This document shows, in pieces, positions 1,582-30,624 of a stretch of 64,000 nucleotides of DNA (its first letter is position 1; every line of letters starts with the position of its first letter). The stretch lies in NCBI GenBank assembly GCA_016180235.1, contig JACPBQ010000004.1, forward strand, positions 175,674 to 239,673, in the 5' to 3' direction. This stretch comes from Candidatus Woesearchaeota archaeon. Its GTDB lineage: Archaea; Nanobdellota; Nanobdellia; Woesearchaeales; GW2011-AR4. The position numbers and the translations under genes were made by a program. The notes beneath the pieces are model-generated. The model did not search any database, was not told the origin of the DNA, and saw only the letters and a list, made by a program, of their open reading frames with translations.

Positions 1582-2433
1582 TTATTTCACAACCTGATTT
1601 AGAATATGCTGCAAATACTCCTTCTTTGTTGAAAACCCCGCTTTCTTTGCCAGCTTGTCCATCCCTTTCACGAAATTGCTGCCATATTGGGCTGCCTTCT
1701 TTTTTCTCCATGCAAATTCTGTTTCCAGGCCATAATCAGCTGCTATCTCCCTAAGAATTATTTTTTTCTGCTCTTTGTCCAGCTTGTACATCGGATGAAC
1801 TGACATTGCTGCTTTTATTACGCTTTCATCCATGTAAGGCGTCCTTACTTCAACCCCTAAATTTGATGCTATCTTAAAATCCCGCAATAAATCCCTCTGC
1901 CACATATTTTTCAGGCCTGACCAGCATTCTTTGTGGAGAGCCTCAAAATTGTCATTTTGGAATGCCTCTTCATGCCTTTGGTAGCCAGCAAATATCTCCT
2001 CTGTTCCAAGTCCGGAGAAAAGAATTTTTTCATTATTTTGCAAAGCTAGTCTTAAAACTGCATATACAACAGAGCCGACAGAGGCCCATACAATGTCATC
2101 GCTCTTTAAGATTTTCAGGGTTTCTTTTATTGAATTTTCCATCTCCTCCAGATTCATTAACTTAAATTTTAAATTGAGGCTGTGCTTTTTTGCTATCTGC
2201 TGCGCAAAGTCCAGATCCTGGGAATTTTCAATGCCGATACTGTAGCAAGTGAAATTAAGATTGTAATTTTTGCATATCAATGCCAGCAAAGTGCTGTCAA
2301 CGCCTCCGGAAAAGAGAATCCCGAAATGCCCAATATTTTGGGTTCTTTTTATTATTGCCTTCTCTATTGCTTCCCTTAATTTCCTTTTTGCCCTTTCCTT
2401 GTTGGTTTCTAAACTATCAAAAGGAGATTCCAT
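1582..2433 (-). CDS. Asparagine synthetase-like PP-loop ATP pyrophosphatase (AsnB C-terminal domain only)
   Basis: PP-loop FGILFSGGVDSTLLAL. The track ORF runs to a GTG at 2574; the ATG at 2433 gives the usual ~40 aa before SGGxDS. Confidence 0.7.
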   Translation of the reverse strand: MESPFDSLETNKERAKRKLREAIEKAIIKRTQNIGHFGILFSGGVDSTLLALICKNYNLNFTCYSIGIENSQDLDFAQQIAKKHSLNLKFKLMNLEEMENSIKETLKILKSDDIVWASVGSVVYAVLRLALQNNEKILFSGLGTEEIFAGYQRHEEAFQNDNFEALHKECWSGLKNMWQRDLLRDFKIASNLGVEVRTPYMDESVIKAAMSVHPMYKLDKEQKKIILREIAADYGLETEFAWRKKKAAQYGSNFVKGMDKLAKKAGFSTKKEYLQHILNQVVK

Positions 2434-2570
2434 TGAAGAAATGAGCTTCTCCCATGATTCTTTCTCAACTAAATTATTGTTTTTCAGGTATATTTCCACA
2501 TGCAAAAGGAAAAAGCAAGCTTTTAAAAATCTTTTTAGGGAATTTTGAGTTAAATTTGTTTTGTCAAAAA

Positions 2571-2707
2571 CCACCAGTCAAAGACTGGTGGAATGTTTTT
2601 GTTTATGTTGAACATTGAGTGGTTTTTGAGCATGCTCGGAAATTTTGCACAATCACGAAGCACATTGACTTCCAGCCACTAGTTCAAAACTGGTGGAAAA
2701 TTTCCGA
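2571..2707. repeat. Two related 9-bp hairpins plus an 11-bp inverted repeat in a long non-coding spacer
   Basis: CCACCAGTC-AAA-GACTGGTGG (2571-2591) and CCACTAGTT-CAA-AACTGGTGG (2676-2696). TCGGAAATTTT (2636-2646) is the reverse complement of AAAATTTCCGA (2697-2707). Confidence 0.6.
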
Positions 2708-3859: not shown

Positions 3860-3920
3860 AGGTAAGACCTATCGGAATCATCAAAACATGAATATTTTTA
3901 TATAATCTATATAAACCAAT

Positions 3921-3950
3921 GAGTGGCAAAAACACATAGATTTTTAAATT
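3921..3950 (+). promoter_or_regulatory. Loose copy of the shared promoter module, upstream of ORF 4049
   Basis: GAGTGGCAAAAACACATAGATTTTTAAATT compared with AAGTGGTAAAAATAGAAAGATTTATATA at 8669-8696. Lies ~100 nt before the ATG, which has a GAGG Shine-Dalgarno sequence at 4038-4041. Confidence 0.35.
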
Positions 3951-4048
3951 AAGAAGGCTTAACTATTGTTAATAGAAAAGGAGTGTTCTTTTAGCAGTTG
4001 GAAAGAAGATGTAGAGGAAAGACTGAAAATTGAGTTAGAGGAAAAAGG

Positions 4049-5656
4049 ATGAATAATTTTGAAAGGCTTTTAGGGCTTGCTGCAATTGGCGGATTTATGA
4101 AATTGGTAACCGATGATAATAATATTGGTGTTAAACCGAAAACCCATGGGCCTGGATTAGAACATATTGCAAACCATGTAGGTGGCGATAATGAGCCCCC
4201 AGTAGATGATGGTAATGTAGTAACAACTTCCAACGGCTATCAGTTAGGAGATATTGTTAACATGAGCTTTATGATTAATGGTAGAAATTCTACGTTAAGA
4301 GAAACATTTACGGAAGCCGAATCAGCGTTAATTTCATTTTACGATTCTAAAGTCAAAGAAGTCCAGAAAGGCCAGTCAAGGCATATGGGCGGAGTTTACG
4401 AAGAACATATTAAAGATATGCTCCAGATTTATTTTGATATAACAAGCCAACTAAAAATAAAGCCAGATTATAAGTTTGTCGCTTCAATAATTATACATGA
4501 TTATTTTGAAGATCATCCAGAGATGAGAGGATTGTTAAAGGAATTTGACAGAATGATGAGGAGATATAGAGAAGATGATAAGCTTCAAAAAAATGGGAAT
4601 ATAGAAAGAATGTTGAGTAAAATAAGACAAAAAAGATTCGAGCTTATTTCTGGATTATCCAAACAGCAAGAGGTTTTTTTAGAAGAATACGGCAGAAAAC
4701 ATGACTTAGGTGATGAAGAAAGAAGGCAGCTTATGCTTGATGCTCAGACTATAGTTGGCATTGCTGAATGGCTTACGAGGAATGTAGAGCAAAGATTCTT
4801 TCACGATTCTGTTTATCTTCTGCACAGAATGAATACTGTAGAAGATTATGCAGACCAAGCAAAAGGGAGCCCCTTGCAATCTCGGCTAATGCACAGTTTT
4901 GGAATTCAATGTGGTACAGAGCCTACGGAATATTACTTAATGAGAGCATTGGGGAAAGCAATAGACAGAATTGCATTATCAAGGGAAAGAGAACAAAGAT
5001 ATACAGAAGCTGAAGCCATAGAACTAGGATCTCTTGTTGAACAAAATGAGCGGCTAAGAGATATTTACGGACATGTTGATTTCAGAGGCTCAGAAATGCC
5101 AAGGCCTTACTTGCTTAACTTGCTGCATAGGAACATGGTGGTTTTAAGCAACATGGGTTATGCATTGAATGAGTATGGCAGACAAATTGTAAGAGAAAGT
5201 AGTAACGATTCTATCGCTTTTGCTTATTTGAGAGCAATCCAATTAGCAAGAAAACGTCTAATTGAAGAAAGCAGAAAAATAGTAGGTGAATTAACTACGA
5301 GCTATGAGCAAGAGTTACCGAATGAAACTGTTGATGAAGTAAAAACTCTTGTAAATGCAAAACCAAAAGGATATTACAGAAGACTAACAGGAGAAGGGCC
5401 GGTAAGCAGAGGCCTTGGCCTAGATACAGATCATCCAGCTGATTGGGCAGATTTAGATAAAGACCATAAAGGCAACAACAGCGTACTTAGAATGTCACGC
5501 AACTATGAAGATGCATTGGTATTCGGACGATTGCTTACACATTTTGAAGAGCCCAAGAAAAACAAAATCGACCTTAATAATGGGAATTTTCAGTTGTTTT
5601 ACATTGAGGGCCTGACTGGTCACCCTGCCTTGGCAGCCACACCTTATACGACATAG
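4049..5656 (+). CDS. Large orphan protein with a RelA/SpoT-type (p)ppGpp-hydrolase-like HD domain (SAH-like) plus an unassigned ~270-aa C-terminal part
   Basis: KGQSRHMGGVYEEH (aa 107-120), ASIIIHDYFEDH (HDxxED, aa 145-156) and LLHRMNT (aa 257-263) occur in the order of the Rel/SpoT hydrolase motifs H-x-GQ-x-R-x-SGEPY-x-x-H, LHDVVEDT and DRLHNMRT. Confidence 0.6.
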   Translation: MNNFERLLGLAAIGGFMKLVTDDNNIGVKPKTHGPGLEHIANHVGGDNEPPVDDGNVVTTSNGYQLGDIVNMSFMINGRNSTLRETFTEAESALISFYDSKVKEVQKGQSRHMGGVYEEHIKDMLQIYFDITSQLKIKPDYKFVASIIIHDYFEDHPEMRGLLKEFDRMMRRYREDDKLQKNGNIERMLSKIRQKRFELISGLSKQQEVFLEEYGRKHDLGDEERRQLMLDAQTIVGIAEWLTRNVEQRFFHDSVYLLHRMNTVEDYADQAKGSPLQSRLMHSFGIQCGTEPTEYYLMRALGKAIDRIALSREREQRYTEAEAIELGSLVEQNERLRDIYGHVDFRGSEMPRPYLLNLLHRNMVVLSNMGYALNEYGRQIVRESSNDSIAFAYLRAIQLARKRLIEESRKIVGELTTSYEQELPNETVDEVKTLVNAKPKGYYRRLTGEGPVSRGLGLDTDHPADWADLDKDHKGNNSVLRMSRNYEDALVFGRLLTHFEEPKKNKIDLNNGNFQLFYIEGLTGHPALAATPYTT

Positions 5657-5670
5657 TTTTAAATATTAAC

Positions 5671-5708
5671 ACTACTTTCTAGTGGTATAGATGGAAAGGT
5701 TTAAAAAG
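5671..5708 (+). promoter_or_regulatory. Shared promoter module upstream of ORF 5730
   Basis: ACTACTTTCTAGTGGTATAGATGGAAAGGTTTAAAAAG. The A/T box ends 21 nt before the ATG (leaderless geometry). Aligns with 8659-8698 and 30022-30060. Confidence 0.5.
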
Positions 5709-5729
5709 ATTAAAATTGTCCCATAAACC

Positions 5730-8117
5730 ATGGTTGAGAAGGACATACCAATTGGAGTTTTAAGCCCAGAATTCAAGGAATTTTTAAGCAAGTTTCATTT
5801 AGCCAGAATTGCTCTTTCTAGGCAAGAGATTCCAGAGCATGCTTTGGACGATATTGTAGAACTTATGGACTTTCTTCATCTTGCTGGAGAAATGAACATT
5901 CCAAAAGAAGGATATGATCAAGAATACCAATCAAATAAAAAGAATTTGGAAAAGTTCATTGATAGGATTTTAGGTGTAACTGCCAAAAGAAATGTTCTGG
6001 ATTTTATACCTGGACTCTCAGCAACAAAATATACACGCGTGAAAGGCATATACACAGGAGATGGACCTGTCAGCGCCAGGACTTTTGAGCATGATTTGGA
6101 TACAACGGTATTGCATATGTATAGCAGAGTGAAGGATTTTGAAGAATACGGGCTTAAAACCGTCCTTAATGTCAATAACCAGACTCCCACAGGATTTCTT
6201 GATGTAAGCGCTTTCAGAGCGATTATTGAGCATCGTGATGCTACCAGGTACAGGTATGAAGAGACGTTTAAAAGGCTGGATAATAGCAAAAAAGATGAAA
6301 TCCTGAAGAAATTTGGGCTTCATAATTTTTCCGAGATTTTTGAATATTTGAGTAAGATGAAGGATTTCAGCGATAGGGTCCAGGTGCTAGAATTTCAAGA
6401 TCTAAGGCCCGACCAACAGGGAGATTATAGGAAAAAATTCGCGAAAAAAAATGAAGATGCTTGCATAGAATTCGCACAAAAGCTAGCGGGGAATAGCAAG
6501 GGTATGCACTTTGTGCCGATTTGGCCCTTATATATTTCTTTGGGCACCGGCATAGAAGCCAGAGTCCAGACTCAAACTTTTATAGATGCCAGATTCAATG
6601 AAGTATTTGAATTAGACTACATTATCAGGAGATTTACAGGTAAAGGCTCTGGCGAGAGCCTGTTTGATGCTGTAAAGCGCAGAGCAGTCGGAACTTTAAA
6701 GTCAGAAGAAGGGGGAGTTGTAGTTTATGATGATAAGAATGGAAAAGTTTCATATTTAGTTGATTATGGCGACCTCATTTTGAATTTTCATACTGCAACC
6801 GGAGCCGATATAGGGGAGATAAAAAGGCTTGCAGGCTTAATTTATTCCAAGTTTGAAAAGTCAGAGAATAAGCTCAAAAGAAAGCAAGAAGAAGGAAAAC
6901 ACAGAAGCGAAGAAGATCAGGACTGGAAGGCTATCCTGGATTTATTGGATGGCCACATTTTGGATGATATCAGCCTCAAGCCGGATGATTTGCCTGTTGG
7001 ATTGTATGCTTCTATCCAAAATAATGTTGAAAATATCAAAGGAAAATACGGAGTTAGGTTTGATAATGGAAGGCTGGTAGAAACATGCATCAGGAACAGA
7101 TTTGATCCTCTTGTTGATCCAAAAGCTGCTGCCAGAGGCCATCGCGACGTCAAAGTCTATCCTAATTTTGATCCTGAAAAGGTGCAGATTTGCGCAGAAC
7201 TGCAGATAAGGTCTCCAGACAGCGATTTTGACTCCGAATTTGGCAAAGCAGCCCATTCAAAATATAAAAAAGACAGGAGGGCCAAATTAAGCATGACTGA
7301 TATTTTGTTTGTGGATGCTTTTTTTGGGCAGGATCAAGCCAGAGAAAAAAGCCGCGCCCAGTTATACGGAGAATTCTACAGCAGGATAATTGAACAAACT
7401 GCCCATCAAATTTCCGCTATAGGCGTGATAGAACACGATAAACGAAGATTTGATGCACTAATCGGCAAAGTGAATAGATACCTGCACAATGCCGCCGAGA
7501 GAGCAGCTGGTTATTTACCGAAGATCGGCATATCAGTTGAATCTATCCTAACTTTGTATATGGAAAGTAAAGGCATGGATGCGCTTTCATACGCAGATAG
7601 TTTGTGGCATATAAGAAATGCTGTTGCGGATATGTCAGAAAGACACAGAATAAGGCCAAAATATTGGAAAGACAGAAGGGCCCTAGAAACAGAAATTCAC
7701 TCATCACGCATCAAAAGCTTATTTGATGCCTATAGCAACTTAATTGCTGGAGATAAAAATAGTGCAATAGCGGCTATTTTCTTAGGCAGATTGATATCAG
7801 ACTACAACTCCTATTATCCTCAGGCCATAGAAAGTGCTGTGCAGAGACACTATAGCGGCCTGCTCAACAATTTTGGCAAACAGCACGGATGGAGACAAAA
7901 AAAATTAAGAAAAAAATTGGATTTAGGCATTGTTCCTGCCAGATCAAATGATGGACAGGCTATCCATAATGTGGATTTATTGTATGCTATTAAAAATCCA
8001 TCAGCTGTAAGCTACTTTTTACATGCAAGCGGACTTGGCTTCAGTGCAGATTTGCTGACAAATGTGGAGAAGCTCTGCTATAATTACGGACAGAGGCTTG
8101 AACCTAGAAAGCGCTGA
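5730..8117 (+). CDS. Large orphan protein with RelA/SpoT-type synthetase-like (nucleotide pyrophosphokinase, Pol-beta fold) motifs
   Basis: EIKRLAGLIYSKFEK (cf. GRxKxxYSIxxK), LDLLDGHIL, GHRDVKVY and CAELQIRSPDSDFDSEFGKAAHSKYKK (cf. E-x-QIRT...AAHWxYK) at aa 364-513. A weaker second set lies at aa 132-281: SRVKDFEEYGLK, LDVSAFRAII (cf. DIYAFRVI), YISLG, IEARVQTQT. Confidence 0.6.
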   Translation: MVEKDIPIGVLSPEFKEFLSKFHLARIALSRQEIPEHALDDIVELMDFLHLAGEMNIPKEGYDQEYQSNKKNLEKFIDRILGVTAKRNVLDFIPGLSATKYTRVKGIYTGDGPVSARTFEHDLDTTVLHMYSRVKDFEEYGLKTVLNVNNQTPTGFLDVSAFRAIIEHRDATRYRYEETFKRLDNSKKDEILKKFGLHNFSEIFEYLSKMKDFSDRVQVLEFQDLRPDQQGDYRKKFAKKNEDACIEFAQKLAGNSKGMHFVPIWPLYISLGTGIEARVQTQTFIDARFNEVFELDYIIRRFTGKGSGESLFDAVKRRAVGTLKSEEGGVVVYDDKNGKVSYLVDYGDLILNFHTATGADIGEIKRLAGLIYSKFEKSENKLKRKQEEGKHRSEEDQDWKAILDLLDGHILDDISLKPDDLPVGLYASIQNNVENIKGKYGVRFDNGRLVETCIRNRFDPLVDPKAAARGHRDVKVYPNFDPEKVQICAELQIRSPDSDFDSEFGKAAHSKYKKDRRAKLSMTDILFVDAFFGQDQAREKSRAQLYGEFYSRIIEQTAHQISAIGVIEHDKRRFDALIGKVNRYLHNAAERAAGYLPKIGISVESILTLYMESKGMDALSYADSLWHIRNAVADMSERHRIRPKYWKDRRALETEIHSSRIKSLFDAYSNLIAGDKNSAIAAIFLGRLISDYNSYYPQAIESAVQRHYSGLLNNFGKQHGWRQKKLRKKLDLGIVPARSNDGQAIHNVDLLYAIKNPSAVSYFLHASGLGFSADLLTNVEKLCYNYGQRLEPRKR

Positions 8118-8559: not shown

Positions 8560-8658
8560 TTTTTTAGTTGTATTAAATAAGTAGTTTATATTTTTTATTA
8601 AGTTAATAAACATTAATATAATTTACTTTCAATACAGAACTTAGTTATGTAAGATTTG

Positions 8659-8698
8659 TTACTTTTTAAAAGTGGTAAAAATAGAAAGATTTATATAC
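8659..8698 (+). promoter_or_regulatory. Shared promoter module upstream of ORF 8719
   Basis: TTACTTTTTAAAAGTGGTAAAAATAGAAAGATTTATATAC. TATA box TTTATATA, ATG 20 nt downstream. The 16-nt block AAAAATAGAAAGATTT is identical at 30037-30054. Confidence 0.6.
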
Positions 8699-8718
8699 TA
8701 TAAATCAAAATTATATTC

Positions 8719-9711
8719 ATGAAACATCCGCTGCATGTGAATCCACAAGCAAAGGACTACAGGGAGTATTTTGACCATATTCTTGCCTACAATGAAATAT
8801 TGCACAGAGAGGTAGCTAAGTTAGTTCTTGATGAATTTCAAGGTAGTGAAGATGGATTTTGCATTGCGACAGTCGGTAGCGACGCTAGGTATGAAAAAGG
8901 CCCTGGCTCTTTGGTAGAGGTTATTTTGTTAAGTTCTAAATCTGTAAAACGTGGAATTAGGAGAAGGCTGGAATTGTTGGTAACTGATGAAAACAGAGGT
9001 ATATTTGACCCTCGCATAGAGAGAAAAAGTGTTGACGAAGACAGCATGGTAGAATCTGTAATAGGAGAAGCAGAAACCCAAATTAGGTTAATTTCCCCAA
9101 ATAGGATTCTTGACGTCAATTCTTTATTTGGAGACCAAAAGATGCATCAAAAAGCTAAATTAAAGCTAGCTGAGGAATTGAAATCCGGACAAGGAAGATC
9201 TATTTATGATAGGATTAAAGATAAAGTAAGGCATCACAAAGTGGTAACTTTAAACGGCACTCAAAGATATAAGCAAGAGTATTTTCAGCATTTCGATTTA
9301 GATGATGGTGTAGCTTTTTATGATCCAGAAAAAGGTTTATGGTCGTTTAAACAGGGTCCACTAAGGTATGTTCAATTCACAATAGTAAGAGATGTTTCTG
9401 CGGCAATAAGGGAAAGTGAAAAAGGAAAAAGGGCTCTTTATTTGCCCCAGAATACTGTCAGCAAGTTGAATTCAATTGAAGTAGATGGTGCCATAAATAT
9501 TTCCCAAGAACAAATGAGTGATCTTACAGATAGTTATAAATTCTTTTTGCACCAATATCATTTATCACAATGGAATCATAGACAAGGGTTAACAATTACT
9601 GCTTTTGATCCTAAGGAGGTAAAGGAAAGGTGTAAATCACTAACTGAAATATGCCCAAGTAGACTCTTTTCCTATGAACAAAATCAAACAATAGGAAAAA
9701 AGGCAAGTTAA
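8719..9711 (+). CDS. GlnD/DUF294-like Pol-beta nucleotidyltransferase with atypical catalytic positions
   Basis: ATVGSDARYEKGPGSLVEVILL (aa 50-71; cf. GSxGRxExxxxSDxDxxLL) and FKQGPLRYVQ (aa 210-219; cf. GlnD K-x-G-x-GGLRDIQ). Confidence 0.45.
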   Translation: MKHPLHVNPQAKDYREYFDHILAYNEILHREVAKLVLDEFQGSEDGFCIATVGSDARYEKGPGSLVEVILLSSKSVKRGIRRRLELLVTDENRGIFDPRIERKSVDEDSMVESVIGEAETQIRLISPNRILDVNSLFGDQKMHQKAKLKLAEELKSGQGRSIYDRIKDKVRHHKVVTLNGTQRYKQEYFQHFDLDDGVAFYDPEKGLWSFKQGPLRYVQFTIVRDVSAAIRESEKGKRALYLPQNTVSKLNSIEVDGAINISQEQMSDLTDSYKFFLHQYHLSQWNHRQGLTITAFDPKEVKERCKSLTEICPSRLFSYEQNQTIGKKAS

Positions 9712-9735
9712 AGATTCTATTGAGAATTAACTTTT

Positions 9736-11499
9736 TTAAATCCCCCACACAGGATTCTTTTCCCTCATTATTGCTGCTATCTCCTTCAGAAGCTCTTTTT
9801 CCTCCTGGTTAAGGTGCTTTTTCAGTTCCTTGAATTTCCTGAATTCACTATCAGGAATAGCTGAATACAAAATGTCTCCTTCATTAATCTGCCTTCCAAC
9901 CGTCACTTTTGGCAATGAAATCGCGACCTGCCTGCCCCTTTCGGCCTTTTCCACGCTTTCCTGGTCCTGCTGTATGCTTTTCACTTCTGCTATTTTTTTG
10001 CCGTCTTTTTTCATCAGGGGAGCGTTTACTTTCAAAGTTCCTGCAAGGATATCCACTCCCACAACGGCAGGATTGTTCTGCCTGAAAACATAGCCTTTCA
10101 TTATCTGCAGTTTGCATGGCCTGACCAACAAGTCTATCTCTCCCGTTTCCTGCTTCTTCCTTTCCTCTTCCTGCCATTTTTCAAGGTCATCAATCAATTT
10201 ATAGATAACAGTATTGGTGATAATTTTGGCATTTTTCAAAGAGATAGCATCGTGCATCATCTCGACATTAAAGCCCAGGATTACGGTATTCAGGGGGTCT
10301 TTCTCATAGTTTATCTGCGCATCTGAAATGTCCTTCTTTGAGATGTTTCCTATGCTTGCCTTTTTTACAGGTATATTTTTCTCCTTAAGCAGCTTAATCA
10401 ATGCTTCCAGGCTTCCCAATGAGTCTGCTTTTATGACAATGCCCTGCTGCCTGGTTTCTATTATGACTTCGTCAACTTCTCTTTTTATTTCTGTTTTTGC
10501 TTTCTCTATTTCATCTGGACTGCAGGACATCAGCGGCATTCCTGCTACAACGTCATCTATATCCGGAGCTGAAATCTTCACTCCAATCGCTGCTGACGCT
10601 TCTTTAACTTTTTTAAACTTGGTTTTTTTATCCTTCATATCCTTCAGTTGCGAAGGCTCCAAGAGCGCCTTGACTTTTGTCGCTATCGGCTCAGAAAGCG
10701 TTCCTATGATTATTGTATCATTCTGCTTTAGATTGCCGTCATACAATATGACCTCCAAGGTCTTTCCAATGCCTTTTTCCTCCTTGATTTCCAAAATGGT
10801 GCCTTTTGCGCTTCCTTCAACATTTATTTTCAGGCTTTGCTCCAGGTATTTTTGAGCCAGCCCGGTTAAGACCATCAAAAGCTCCGGAATGCCTTCCCCG
10901 GTTTTTGCCGATACCGGAACAATAGCAACTTGTTTCGTGTAATCTTCCACCCTGTCAAATCTTTCGGAATTAAAGCCCAGCTCGGATAATCTTCCGACTA
11001 TTTCGTAAAGCCTGGTTTCAAGAATTTTTTGCACAGATTCAGGCTGCAGATTAAGGTTTTGAATCAAAAGCGTGTTTTTGCTTTGCCATCCCGAGACTAA
11101 ATCAATCTTGTTCAAGGCGATTATAAACGGCGTTTTGTATTGTTTCAGTATTTCTATGCATTCCAGCGTCTGGGGCATTATGCCTTCCTGGACATTAATC
11201 ACCAGGATAGCTATATCAGCCAGATTTCCACCTCTCCTTCTCAAGTTGGTAAAGGCTGCATGGCCCGGAGTGTCTATAAAAAGCAGTCCCGGGATTGTAA
11301 GCTTAAGATTCAGCTTATCCAATAAATTTCCGCATATCTTCCTTATTACAGAGATTGGTATGTTGCTGGAGCCTATATGCTGCGTTATCAATCCTGCTTC
11401 TGTCTTTGCAATAGTGCTCTGCCTAATGTAATCCTGCAGGCTTGTCTTCCCATGGTCAATATGCCCTACAAAAGTCACTATTGGCTGCCTGATTTTCAT
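9736..11499 (-). CDS. infB: Translation initiation factor aIF5B (IF-2 family GTPase)
   Basis: RQPIVTFVGHIDHGKTSL, FIDTPGH, ALNKID and four-domain length. ATG at 11499 preferred over 11553. Confidence 0.9.
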   Translation of the reverse strand: MKIRQPIVTFVGHIDHGKTSLQDYIRQSTIAKTEAGLITQHIGSSNIPISVIRKICGNLLDKLNLKLTIPGLLFIDTPGHAAFTNLRRRGGNLADIAILVINVQEGIMPQTLECIEILKQYKTPFIIALNKIDLVSGWQSKNTLLIQNLNLQPESVQKILETRLYEIVGRLSELGFNSERFDRVEDYTKQVAIVPVSAKTGEGIPELLMVLTGLAQKYLEQSLKINVEGSAKGTILEIKEEKGIGKTLEVILYDGNLKQNDTIIIGTLSEPIATKVKALLEPSQLKDMKDKKTKFKKVKEASAAIGVKISAPDIDDVVAGMPLMSCSPDEIEKAKTEIKREVDEVIIETRQQGIVIKADSLGSLEALIKLLKEKNIPVKKASIGNISKKDISDAQINYEKDPLNTVILGFNVEMMHDAISLKNAKIITNTVIYKLIDDLEKWQEEERKKQETGEIDLLVRPCKLQIMKGYVFRQNNPAVVGVDILAGTLKVNAPLMKKDGKKIAEVKSIQQDQESVEKAERGRQVAISLPKVTVGRQINEGDILYSAIPDSEFRKFKELKKHLNQEEKELLKEIAAIMREKNPVWGI

Positions 11500-11630
11500 G
11501 CTGAAAAGGAATGGAATTTGTTTTTTAAAGGTTGTTATATTTAGAGCCGGCAAAGAAACACGGAATTACCGATTAAACCAAAGAAATCTTTATATAGGTG
11601 GTACCATTTTACAATGGTGAAGGTGTTTTG

Positions 11631-22696: not shown

Positions 22697-23011
22697 ATGT
22701 TCTGCCAGAAATGCGGCTCGGTACTGCTGCCAAAGAAGGAAGGCAGCAAAAGAATTCTTGTATGCAGCTGCGGCTATAAGTCTTCTGGAGCGGAAAAAAC
22801 GAAGATAACCGAGACGATAAACAAGAAATCGAAAGAGGTCGAGGTCATTGAAAAGGAGATAGAGACGCTGCCAAAGACAAAAGTTGAATGCCCGAAATGC
22901 GGCCATAAGGAAGCATTTTTCTGGACGATGCAGACAAGAGCGGGAGACGAGCCTGAAACAAAATTCCACAAGTGCGTCAAATGCAGGCATACGTGGAGAG
23001 ATTATGACTAA
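22697..23011 (+). CDS. tfs: Transcription factor S (TFS / RpoM)
   Basis: N-terminal Zn ribbon CQKCGS...CSCG. C-terminal CPKCGHKEAFFWTMQTRAGDEPETKFHKCVKCRHTW carries the acidic DE loop. Confidence 0.9.
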   Translation: MFCQKCGSVLLPKKEGSKRILVCSCGYKSSGAEKTKITETINKKSKEVEVIEKEIETLPKTKVECPKCGHKEAFFWTMQTRAGDEPETKFHKCVKCRHTWRDYD

Positions 23012-23634
23012 GAAGGCGCTGGGTCTATCCTTGCTTCCCTTGTTTTGCAGTCGATGGTTATTTTTACATGATAAAGAATTTCTCCATTAGAAACGTCATT
23101 TCCTGATTTAACCTGCTCAATAAAAAACTCCGCAGGAGATTTGGTGTATAAAACCCTAGTTGCTGTGATTATTCCCTTATCTTCGGTCCTTTTGTAAGCA
23201 TCAACTTGCACTCCATTTAAGTATGAATTAATTTCTACAAATGGGTCTGGTGTAATTTCGCACGTAGAAAGACTAACACAATGTTCGGCGTATGTTTTAG
23301 AAGATTTCGATTGGCTTGCTGATCCTTTAACCCAAAGCCGGGCTATATCCACAACAACTCCAGGTTCTTTCCCAGAATTTGAGTTCTTTATCAATGATTC
23401 GAGCTCTTTTGAATTCTGATTTCCTACAGCATCATAGATGACATCCTGAATTCCAACCTGTAGGCAGTTTCTTATCATTTTGGCATGAAAGTATAAATCA
23501 CCATCAGGAACTTCTCCTCTTAGCTGAGCATCAAAGCTACGCCTAAGAAAATCTCTCGCGTTCTGAGGAATAGCCAAATTGACATACCATTGCCCGATTC
23601 TTTCATAGCTTTCAGGCACCGGTTTGTTTTCCAT
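23008..23634 (-). CDS. Hypothetical protein
   Basis: 208-aa ORF with no motif recognised. Its 3' end overlaps the tfs stop by 4 nt. Confidence 0.45.
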   Translation of the reverse strand: MENKPVPESYERIGQWYVNLAIPQNARDFLRRSFDAQLRGEVPDGDLYFHAKMIRNCLQVGIQDVIYDAVGNQNSKELESLIKNSNSGKEPGVVVDIARLWVKGSASQSKSSKTYAEHCVSLSTCEITPDPFVEINSYLNGVQVDAYKRTEDKGIITATRVLYTKSPAEFFIEQVKSGNDVSNGEILYHVKITIDCKTREARIDPAPS

Positions 23635-25330: not shown

Positions 25331-25948
25331 ATGGCTAAAGGCTTGTTTATAGTCCTGGACGGAATGGACGGCAGCGGCAAGAGCGAGATGGTAAAACTGC
25401 TGCACAACTACCTTTTTTCAAAAAGCAAAAGCTACAGGATACTGACAACAAGGGAGCCTACAAGCGGCAGATACGGCAAAGAGATAAGGAAAATCCTTGC
25501 ATCAGACAAGGATCCCAAAGATAATGCGGAAAAGCTGCTTGGGCTTTTCATCAAAGACAGGGAAGAGCATGTAAACGATACAATAATGCCTTTCCTAAAA
25601 AAAACAAATGGGGATATAAATATCGTAATATGTGACAGGTATTATTATTCCACAATTGCTTTCCAGGCTGCCCAGGGATTAGACATGAAAATGCTCATTG
25701 AGAAAAACAAAAAATTCCCGCAGCCGGATATAGCCTTTATCATGGACCTGGAGCCCGAGACTGCGCTGGAAAGGATAAAAAATAGAAAAAAGGAGAAATT
25801 TGAATATATGGGCTTCATGGAAAATCTGAGGAAAAGGTTCCTGGAGCTGCCAAAAGTCCTGAAAGATAATATAAAGATTGTAGATGCATCTAAAGACGCC
25901 AATGGAGTCTTTGAAGAAATAACAAAGGAAATTGCTAAAATGCTCTAA
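25331..25948 (+). CDS. tmk: Thymidylate kinase
   Basis: P-loop VLDGMDGSGKSE, TREPT, DRYYYST. Confidence 0.85.
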   Translation: MAKGLFIVLDGMDGSGKSEMVKLLHNYLFSKSKSYRILTTREPTSGRYGKEIRKILASDKDPKDNAEKLLGLFIKDREEHVNDTIMPFLKKTNGDINIVICDRYYYSTIAFQAAQGLDMKMLIEKNKKFPQPDIAFIMDLEPETALERIKNRKKEKFEYMGFMENLRKRFLELPKVLKDNIKIVDASKDANGVFEEITKEIAKML

Positions 25949-26286
25949 GGCATCCTCAAATGATTTTTCTGCTCAGCAGGAATTTCTGCGTTGGAATTTT
26001 TTCTTAATGGAGATTTGCCGAACCTTATTATTGCCGCTGCTATGATTATTGCTATGCCGACTATCATGGACGGCACTATCAGGTTATTTTTCACTATGGT
26101 CTTCTCTATTGTCGGCAATTCGTGGCATGCGAAATCGCTCCCGCAATATTGTGCAGAGCCGCATTGGGAATTTGACCTGCATTCCCTTGAGCCGACATTA
26201 ATCAGCCATCCAAGAAACACTATGATTATCAAAGTAACCAGGATTACGGTTATAGCCTCGGATTTCCTGCTTTTCAGAAGTTTCAT
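25945..26286 (-). CDS. Membrane protein with a Cys-rich extracytoplasmic segment
   Basis: Two TM helices flank SRECRSNSQCGSAQYCGSDFACH. Confidence 0.45.
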   Translation of the reverse strand: MKLLKSRKSEAITVILVTLIIIVFLGWLINVGSRECRSNSQCGSAQYCGSDFACHELPTIEKTIVKNNLIVPSMIVGIAIIIAAAIIRFGKSPLRKNSNAEIPAEQKNHLRMP

Positions 26287-26462
26287 ATTAATCCTGCTAT
26301 TGGGACAAGATTTATAAATTTTTCTGTTAATGACTACCTTATAGTAGAAAATCAGAATTAGCTTTCTTCTTCGTCTTCTGTTTCATTGCTTTCCTCGGTA
26401 AACTCATCAAGCTTCTTGTTCTTCTGCATCGTCTTGTAGCTGACTGCCATTTTCCACCTCTT

Positions 26463-29980: not shown

Positions 29981-30021
29981 TCTTTTGATTATTTTTGATT
30001 ATTTATAAATGTTTTGTGTAA

Positions 30022-30060
30022 TTACTTTTAGATGGTGAAAAAATAGAAAGATTTTAATAC
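30022..30060 (+). promoter_or_regulatory. Shared promoter module upstream of ORF 30082
   Basis: TTACTTTTAGATGGTGAAAAAATAGAAAGATTTTAATAC. Ends 21 nt before the ATG. Near-identical to 8659-8698. Confidence 0.6.
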
Positions 30061-30081
30061 CAGTCTTTTCACCCTGCAACC

Positions 30082-30624
30082 ATGCTGGAAAATAGAATTG
30101 ATCCTTTCGTTGGAAAATACAACTTAAGTGTAGATGGTAAAGCCAGAATAAATCTGCCGATAGATATAGTCGATACCTTAAAGGCCAGAAATGGAGCATC
30201 ACATCATACCGAAATTCCACTTTATTATAAAGTTGGCAGCGGAGAGTATAAGATGGGGAATGAGCAGGCAGGCTTCAGCTATCTTGAGCTAAGAGATATT
30301 ATGGATGCCAAAGCTATTGATTTTCAGAATTATAGGAAAGCACAATTGGAGAAAAAAATTCACCGCTTTTGCATTGGGACGGATATAGCAGATAGGCACG
30401 GGTTTAGAGGAGAAGCTATTGTTGTCGGCTATGGAGACCGTTTTTATATCTTCATGAAAAAAGACTATGACAAGGAAGGTTTTTTTGATTACTTCATTGA
30501 GAATTATCATGAGTGGAACACACAAAAACCCAGAAAATTTGCTGATAGGCTAAATTCTTTGGTAAATCTTCTCTTTAGGAGATTGAGTAATAATCCTCGA
30601 GAACAATCCGATCGACATCCTTGA
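30082..30624 (+). CDS. MraZ/AbrB-like swapped-hairpin DNA-binding protein
   Basis: GKYNLSVDGKARINLPIDIVDTL (D-x-K-G/A-R-h-x-h-P motif) and a weaker second half EAIVVGYGDRFYIFMKKDY. Confidence 0.45.
   Translation: MLENRIDPFVGKYNLSVDGKARINLPIDIVDTLKARNGASHHTEIPLYYKVGSGEYKMGNEQAGFSYLELRDIMDAKAIDFQNYRKAQLEKKIHRFCIGTDIADRHGFRGEAIVVGYGDRFYIFMKKDYDKEGFFDYFIENYHEWNTQKPRKFADRLNSLVNLLFRRLSNNPREQSDRHP

Follow-up and report, generated by a model that had tools for sequence, protein, structure and literature searches.

The closest described relatives of the element analysed here are the operators of archaeal TrmB-family regulators, which take the forms TACT-N3-AGTA, TATCAC-N5-GTGATA and TACT-N7-8-GAGTA and which mediate activation when located upstream of the transcription factor B (TFB) recognition element and TATA box (BRE/TATA) and repression when located downstream (PMC4158304). 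The element is a promoter module of about 40 nt in a 64,000-nt stretch of DNA (hereafter the window; positions C9:175674-239673 of the assembly) from a Candidatus Woesearchaeota archaeon, where copies of it precede the open reading frames (ORFs) starting at 5730, 8719 and 30082. With moderate confidence, we propose from sequence comparison that this block combines an operator with a core promoter and that its palindrome is read by a TrmB-family protein encoded elsewhere in the genome (C4:52317-53078; hereafter TrmB-1). The module would thereby work like a TrmBL1/Tgr-type system, yet outside the sugar-sensing TrmB and TrmBL1 groups.

With the Thermococcales glycolytic motif (TATCAC-N5-GTGATA) bound by TrmBL1/Tgr, the module shares its inverted-repeat layout, in which arms of the TCAC/GTGA type enclose a spacer rich in A/T. 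The placement of the motif upstream of BRE/TATA or between TATA and the start site, the presence of the motif before the regulator gene itself and the predicted control of many promoters by one regulator are further likenesses (PMC4158304, PMC4706686). The module differs in its spacing (TCAC-N6-GTGA or ACT-N4-AGT, sometimes N7), in the absence of sugar-metabolism genes behind it, in a candidate regulator of 253 aa without a recognisable sugar-binding domain, and in an operator that is locked to a near-consensus leaderless promoter by a conserved linker. The sites of Pyrococcus/Thermococcus TrmB (TACT-N3-AGTA) and of Halobacterium TrmB VNG1451C (TACT-N7-8-GAGTA) have the same (T/C)ACT...AGT(A/G) core with other spacer lengths, and their readers are winged-helix dimers whose recognition helix contains a Tyr-Asp pair, which TrmB-1 retains as Y51-D52; there too, position sets activation or repression. 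The Pyrococcus TrmB site overlaps BRE/TATA, whereas the palindrome of the module ends about 7-9 bp upstream of BRE. TrmBL2 (TK0471/PF0496), a chromatin-like global repressor, is the best-scoring named family for TrmB-1 (NCBIfam, 80 bits over residues 4-182 against an equivalog cut-off of 530) and is similar in length (264 vs 253 aa), with neither protein containing a sugar domain. The binding of TrmBL2 to DNA, coding as well as intergenic, shows little specificity, whereas a discrete, positioned operator is predicted here. Finally, archaeal upstream activating sequences (the Ptr2 site and the TFB-RF1 site) also lie directly upstream of BRE at a fixed distance, which implies contact with TFB or the TATA-binding protein (TBP) (PMC4158304). 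Those activators serve promoters with weak BRE/TATA elements, whereas the core of the module is near consensus.

The module consists, in this order, of an imperfect palindrome, an A-rich linker ending in ATA, a near-consensus BRE/TATA (ATAGAAAGATTTAWAWA) and the ATG. An anchored alignment of the copies gave the palindrome consensus YYACT-N4-AGTRR with outer TAAC/GTTA (TAAC-YACT-N4-AGTR-GTTA); the arms were defined on this alignment because a generic inverted-repeat finder, applied to the upstream 36 nt, was misled by the A/T-rich sequence. The clearest palindromes read ACTACT-ATAA-AGTAGT, TCACT-TAGA-AGTGA and AACCACT-TATA-AATGGTT, and four copies, including those before ORFs 8719 and 30082, have an N7 spacer between ACT and (A/G)GT. 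The core promoter is GAAAG(A/G)TTTAWAWA; measured from the first G of this core, the right arm begins 12-15 nt upstream and the ATG follows 35-47 nt (mostly 36-38 nt) downstream. The claim in the earlier note that the conserved part exceeds a core promoter was borne out by this inverted repeat upstream of TATA, whose fixed distance from BRE is, as far as sequence can tell, the signature of an operator. Strict matches to YYACT-N4-AGTRR number nine in 1.04 Mb. Eight of these fall within intergenic DNA, which makes up 11% of the genome, and each of the eight has the same distance and orientation to a BRE/TATA. Furthermore, ATA directly before GAAAG accompanies the palindrome in 16 of 17 AT(A/G)GAAAG(A/G)TTT sites.

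The promoter part follows the general pattern of this genome (1.04 Mb in 9 contigs, 40% G+C, 81% complete), which is archaeal by its aIF5B gene (9736-11553, reverse strand), its one TFB gene and the BRE/TATA signal before its start codons; the closest public relatives of its genes are in groundwater and marine metagenome-assembled genomes (MAGs) that bear the names Candidatus Woesearchaeota, Nanoarchaeota or Nanoarchaeia archaeon. Among 644 upstream regions a positional A/T signal was observed, with AAA at -35 to -33 and TTT at -30 to -28 relative to the ATG, and BRE/TATA at about -35 to -23 points to mostly leaderless mRNAs. The module also has this generic feature, its core lying at about -35 to -23. 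The leaderless geometry read from the window copies agrees with the genome-wide signal, and module mRNAs should thus be leaderless, with transcription predicted to start at or beside the ATG. In copy 1, the ATG 35 nt after the G of BRE predicts a leaderless mRNA for ORF 8719.

Two models were used to find the sites in the window: R1, a sequence-only covariance model of the module that also served for scans of the genome and its relatives, and a leave-out hidden Markov model (HMM) trained on 13 genomic copies that all lie outside the window. The sites and the genes following copy 4 and the variant promoter are:

8651-8700, forward strand: module copy 1 (R1 39.2 bits, E 5.9e-11; leave-out HMM E 1.7e-7), with the palindrome GTTACT (8658-8663), N7 spacer and AGTGGT (8671-8676), and the promoter part of linker AAAAATA (8677-8683), BRE GAAAG (8684-8688) and TATA TTTATATA (8690-8697); ATG at 8719
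5660-5709, forward strand: module copy 2 (R1 34.5 bits, E 1.7e-9), with CTACT (5672-5676), spacer TTCT, AGTGG (5681-5685), BRE GAAAG (5694-5698) and TATA TTTAAAAA (5700-5707); ATG at 5730
30012-30061, forward strand: module copy 3 (R1 36 bits, E 5.9e-10), with the degenerate operator TTACTTTTAGATGGTGA (30022-30038), BRE GAAAG (30046-30050) and TATA TTTTAATA (30052-30059); ATG at 30082
26310-26352, reverse strand: module copy 4 (R1 23 bits, E 6.8e-6; leave-out HMM E 1.1e-3), with CTACT-ATAA-GGTAG (26347-26334), BRE-like G (26324) and TATA TTTATAAA (26318-26311)
25945-26286, reverse strand: ORF after copy 4, a Cys-rich membrane protein of 113 aa
23628-23684, reverse strand: variant promoter (two adjoining partial R1 matches, 18.3 + 19.4 bits), with BRE/TATA GAAAGGTTTATATA (23676-23663) and the palindrome CTACT-AAAT-AATAG (23653-23640)
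23008-23634, reverse strand: ORF after the variant promoter, 208 aa, ATG at 23634

The three copies first noticed, at 8659-8698, 30022-30060 and 5671-5708, match the window letter for letter, and they are the three best window matches of the leave-out HMM (E 1.7e-7, 9.3e-5 and 4.8e-4). Their TATA boxes end 21-22 nt upstream of all three ATGs, within the 20-22 nt given before. The 16-nt block AAAAATAGAAAGATTT common to two copies is exact at 8677-8692 and 30039-30054, and with up to two mismatches it has four matches in the window against 0.61 expected, a number reached in none of 100 shuffles; it occurs seven times in the whole genome and is not private to two genes. The earlier note saw the module at no other gene start of the window, which copy 4 and the variant promoter contradict; both rank directly after the three known copies in the leave-out HMM search. 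In the variant promoter the palindrome lies between TATA and ATG, i.e. in a repressor-type position, an arrangement found in few promoters (also C5:187024 and the second site at C1:4081, both on the reverse strand).

A looser copy had also been reported at 3921-3950 before ORF 4049, but R1 gives no match there at E<=5. Located about 100 nt upstream of the ATG at 4049, this forward-strand stretch has in common with the module only an AGTGG resembling the right arm, an A-tract, ATAG and the TATA-like TTTTTAAAT (AGTGGCAAAAACACATAGATTTTTAAAT in all). It is not a full module, and a MAFFT alignment of the four upstream regions yielded no meaningful alignment of the fourth. As the upstream region 3900-4010, including this stretch, is about 80% identical in the congeneric genome G001, it is probably a different, leadered promoter.

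Beyond the window, a scan for GAAAGRTTT returned 31 intergenic matches, 16 of them with the whole extended block, and nhmmer set apart 16 sites at 27-37 bits, with about nine weaker members. Together, nhmmer and R1 place the module at 16 strong and in total about 25 sites (E<=0.01) on five contigs; counts at this threshold contain a few matches to BRE/TATA alone. The small regulon first envisaged, linking an island at 4-9.7 kb with one gene at 30 kb, therefore gives way to about 25 unrelated genes on five contigs and to a motif of order- and class-wide distribution. The genome-wide scan had been named as the check that could expose a generic strong promoter, and its outcome was divided: the motif does precede many unrelated genes, but the palindrome with the ATA-GAAAG extension occurs at only about 2.5% of genes (a tally that rests on a simple ORF caller), which makes the module a promoter subclass and not a generic promoter.

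Relatives were represented by 41 genomes of the same order and 201 sampled genomes of the phylum. Every one of the 41 sampled members of the order contains the module according to R1, with 9-52 matches at E<=0.01 in 39 of them, and 173 of the 201 phylum genomes match at E<=1e-4, other orders of the class included; the best matches reach 35-47 bits and cover the palindrome, also in other orders. Copies in relatives look alike, e.g. tACTACTttaAAGTGGTTAaaaaATAGAAAGATTTAAATA with the ATG about 24 nt after TATA. The module is kept before the homologue of ORF 5730 in G018, before the orthologue of C5_35048 in G001 and before MraZ-like genes in G008, G005 and G011, and its position and sequence are conserved across the order and in further orders of its class (Woesearchaeota/Nanoarchaeia-type DPANN archaea). 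In some relatives (G026:C24:12595-12659; L102 and L112 at about 211-277), module matches overlap on both strands, where one palindrome appears to be common to two divergent promoters.

The candidate reader of the palindrome is encoded on another contig:

C4:52317-53078: TrmB-1, 253 aa, PF01978 at 65 bits against a cut-off of 25.6

TrmB-1 is the sole intact full-length member of the TrmB family in this assembly, and homologues are present in all 41 genomes of the order. Its own promoter contains TCACT-TTAA-AGTAA followed by AATAGAAAC-TTTAAATA. The module stands before 11 of 12 close orthologues of TrmB-1, whose flanks have diverged, before 9 of 14 homologues in other families (the paralogue TrmB-2 excluded) and at 44 of 73 homologue loci in named Woesearchaeota/Nanoarchaeia MAGs. 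It ends 21-28 nt upstream of the start codon of these TrmB-1-like genes; among all genes, about 2% carry it. The wider search for homologues yielded 519 loci. In addition, the module half-sites (C/T)TACT..AGTA(G/A) and TCACT..AGTGA resemble the published TrmB-family operators. Sugar genes were seen neither among the approximately 25 targets here nor among 30 in relatives, and TrmB-1 scores only 40-55 bits against the NCBIfam TrmB and TrmBL1 equivalogs, whose cut-offs are 600-650 (TrmBL1 55 vs 650), which together indicate that it is not a member of the TrmB or TrmBL1 orthologous groups.

The steps of the proposed mechanism are of falling certainty, from a dimeric reader through its identity with TrmB-1 to a TrmBL1-like mode of action. 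A dimeric DNA-binding regulator would read the palindrome; this reader would be TrmB-1, TrmBL2-like in length and autoregulated through the same module; and a TrmB-type dimer at about -62 to -43, just upstream of BRE, would touch TFB or TBP and so set the output of the promoter. Where the palindrome lies between TATA and ATG, the bound dimer would instead block RNA polymerase. This action is modelled on TrmBL1/Tgr and Halobacterium TrmB, and the same analogy puts an activator-type role slightly ahead for the upstream class.

Several observations weigh against this proposal. A core promoter near consensus agrees better with a strong promoter under repression than with one that depends on an activator. 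The palindromes in the window are relatively poor, with N7 spacers in the copies of ORFs 8719 and 30082 and a right arm without AGT in the latter, and an HMM of the palindrome alone ranks the five window sites top with each of them non-significant (E 1.4-7.5), the palindrome being too short and degenerate to be searchable alone. TrmB homologues are also encoded by G037 and G027, which are nearly without the module, and G038 has 20 module matches without a close TrmB homologue; with TrmB homologues in all 41 genomes of the order, co-occurrence of TrmB and module is not discriminating. Moreover, a module before a TrmB gene shows membership in the regulon only, not that the product is its reader.

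The rival explanation that survives best starts from these points. In it, the palindrome is a real operator read by another dimeric regulator, perhaps another winged-helix protein, TrmB-2 or a third paralogue (TrmB-3), and TrmB-1 is only a conserved target, for example in a cascade. We regard this as rather unlikely but worth keeping in sight: G038 and the failure of co-occurrence to single out TrmB-1 both speak for it, and the third paralogue (C9:283425) lies behind a module-like promoter with a variant palindrome, which may mean that related sites are read by several paralogues. Against TrmB-2 as the reader, this paralogue (protein start MIVKE), which is more conserved than TrmB-1, carries the module at none of about 20 loci, and it is broken by different deletions in this genome (G000) and in G001, both of which keep 15-25 modules. 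The resemblance of the half-sites to known TrmB-family operators and the link of the module to TrmB-1-like genes, conserved in dozens of species, likewise favour TrmB-1.

The TrmB-2 loci have features of their own. Upstream of TrmB-2 in about 20 genomes (L030-L045, L074, L077, L088, L089), a conserved hairpin leader tCCCCT...(A)nGGGGGGTG ends in a Shine-Dalgarno-like GGGGGTG just before the ATG and is preceded by a conserved GTAACATATTAATAGTAGT promoter region, which differs from the module promoter; this leader may be a translational or attenuator element. TrmB-2 is intact in G004 (L097), whereas it has a 115-nt deletion in this genome (C9:318282-318960, outside the window) and a different 35-nt deletion in G001 (L096, G001:C27:3600-4420). 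Both deletions start after the same ...SRSYD codon, have ATGA/ATGATG microhomology flanks and shift the frame. The gene may have been pseudogenised independently in the two genomes, or an unexplained event may have recurred. The third paralogue (C9:283425-284068, also outside the window) has 33 residues (YEVKIWTALLSRGVSTAGELSDIANVPRSRSYD) identical to TrmB-2, is frame-broken directly after SYD as well, and bears the variant palindrome TTATTATATAGTAATAA in its module-like promoter.

Two further candidates were rejected, namely an alternative-TFB promoter class, as the genome has one TFB gene, and a mobile repeat of the MITE or REP type, as similarity stops at the module edges and copies stay with orthologous genes and positions across genomes.

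It is also conceivable, if improbable, that the module has no dedicated regulator and is a strong constitutive promoter spread as a copied cassette or repeat, its palindrome hitch-hiking or serving a structural role. Such copying would agree with a BRE/TATA part close to the generic consensus, with the coupling of ATA and palindrome in 16 of 17 sites as expected for copies of one unit, with cargo genes that are unrelated orphans and with the 5730 locus, where the module stays and the cargo changes. However, the arms vary yet keep their two-fold symmetry and BRE distance across order and class, as under purifying selection on a binding site, and neither terminal repeats nor target duplications nor conserved flanks were seen. 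A palindrome that also occurs in a second, repressor-type position downstream of TATA, and a tight conserved link to a transcription-factor gene, likewise speak against this reading.

The weakest rival goes back to the earlier note, which speculatively proposed the protein encoded behind copy 3 as the cognate regulator:

30082-30624, forward strand: cargo ORF, 180 aa, divergent MraZ homologue outside a dcw/rsmH context

Its likeness to MraZ held up. A profile of ORF 30082 with five distant homologues matches solved MraZ structures over the full length (E 5e-7 to 5e-6; PDB entries 9qlr, 9qlg, 9sx6 and 1n0e), ORF 30082 alone reaches E 0.045 (Pfam MraZ) and 0.0012 (NCBIfam MraZ), and the five homologues match Pfam MraZ at about threshold. 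An MraZ homologue is thus present in a DPANN archaeon. These five were the only homologues at E<=1e-3 in an exhaustive phmmer search of 1.8 billion representative proteins, a word-based homologue search returned only a fragment of ORF 30082 itself, and AlphaFold2 run without an alignment gave a predicted local distance difference test score (pLDDT) of 48.5. ORF 30082 is flanked by genes for a metallophosphoesterase and a VWA protein; neither rsmH nor fts genes are among its neighbours. The family is sporadic, occurring in 5 of the 41 genomes of the order (a direct search found it in 1 of 40 relatives).

That this protein binds the GTGG-containing arm and controls its own gene and the 4-9.7 kb island is highly improbable. 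MraZ sites in Mollicutes are series of direct repeats AAAGTG[T/G] (PMC8475190), and AAAGTGG is frequent in the right arm of the module, including that of copy 1; MraZ proteins control their own genes, and in the order the module precedes four of five MraZ-like genes. Unlike these MraZ boxes and that of the E. coli dcw promoter, however, the module is a single inverted repeat without dcw or rsmH context, precedes about 25 genes on five contigs instead of one island, and has its poorest right arm (GATGGTG) in the copy before ORF 30082 itself. The proposed role of the protein is further contradicted by its absence from 36 of 41 genomes, nearly all with many modules, at least nine copies being present in 39 of the 41. 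Right-arm likeness to the MraZ heptamer consequently cannot explain the module, and with four of five genes carrying it the family behaves as a target and not as the general regulator. ORF 30082 and likewise ORFs 5730 and 8719 are, on this comparison, predicted cargo of the regulon rather than its regulator.

The genes behind the module in this genome are heterogeneous. Their products include the TrmB-family regulator, a coiled-coil membrane protein of 747 aa and a number of small membrane or lipoprotein-like ones, as well as a HAD hydrolase, a trypsin-like peptidase and an MBL-fold protein; many match no family, and most of the genes are orphans specific to their lineage. Bacterial-type signalling proteins are also among them, namely a PAS-GGDEF diguanylate-cyclase-like protein (C1:52917-53798, reverse strand) and an RsbW-like ATPase of the HATPase_c_2 type (C9:55637-56146, reverse strand), and in the relative G023 (L058) a SpoIIE-like phosphatase stands behind the module. 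Between genomes, the proteins downstream of the module are almost never related and mostly lack a Pfam family. Two further cargo genes in the window are:

8719-9711, forward strand: cargo ORF, 330-aa orphan with only faint DUF294-type nucleotidyltransferase and HprK-C matches
5730-8117, forward strand: cargo ORF, 795 aa, in which residues 483-515 resemble RelA/SpoT below threshold

The designation of the ORFs as like RelA/SpoT homologues is weak, with a sub-threshold RelA_SpoT match for ORF 5730 (21.3 bits vs cut-off 27) and none for ORFs 8719 and 4049; sequence searches of PDB with all three returned no match. ORF 8719 has no homologue among 40 related genomes, and ORF 5730 has one in a single relative of the 40 (G018), there too with the module upstream. 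At the 5730 site, the flanking genes are syntenic with G001 and 70-86% identical, and between window positions 4025 and 8117 the module is the sole DNA that can be aligned with the syntenic region (88% over 42 nt); the ORF behind the orthologous module of G001 (409 aa) is unrelated to ORF 5730 (BLASTP E=3).

This genome and G001 also differ at three other places. ORF 4049 (4049-5656) and its counterpart (L095:6125-7633) are 23% identical (E 2e-11) between flanking genes at 70-86%, and the protein is, by these identities, evolving very fast behind a conserved promoter or leader. The slot between a PUA-domain gene and aIF5B (8565-9737) holds the module and ORF 8719 here; in G001 (L095:10276-10981) it is occupied by two different small genes, one of 87 aa and a winged-helix-like one of 109 aa that has an ordinary promoter. 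Finally, one gene (window positions 1582-2574; L095:4205-5136) differs between the two genomes in its orientation relative to the genes around it.

As a tentative extension, which we regard as possible though doubtful, the module may serve Woesearchaeota/Nanoarchaeia throughout the class as an 'expression socket', in which the operator and strong promoter under one TrmB-type master regulator stay in place or are reused as the ORF behind them is replaced. If so, fast-turnover accessory genes would be plugged into one conserved switch, drawn from a pool of orphans, lipoproteins and bacterial-type signalling proteins (GGDEF, RsbW-like, SpoIIE-like, MraZ-like), and the module would be the counterpart, at the level of promoters, of the capture of cassettes by integrons.

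DPANN archaea of this type have yet to be cultivated, and the majority of their genes lack an assigned function. Our literature search found no paper on promoters or regulons of Woesearchaeota or on gene regulation in such DPANN archaea. The module together with a named candidate regulator would provide a first testable regulon for these organisms, would allow dozens of orphan genes in each genome to be treated as one co-regulated set and may offer a strong, compact promoter for future genetic tools. Should the module indeed persist while its cargo is swapped, it would tell how reduced genomes wire newly gained genes into existing control.

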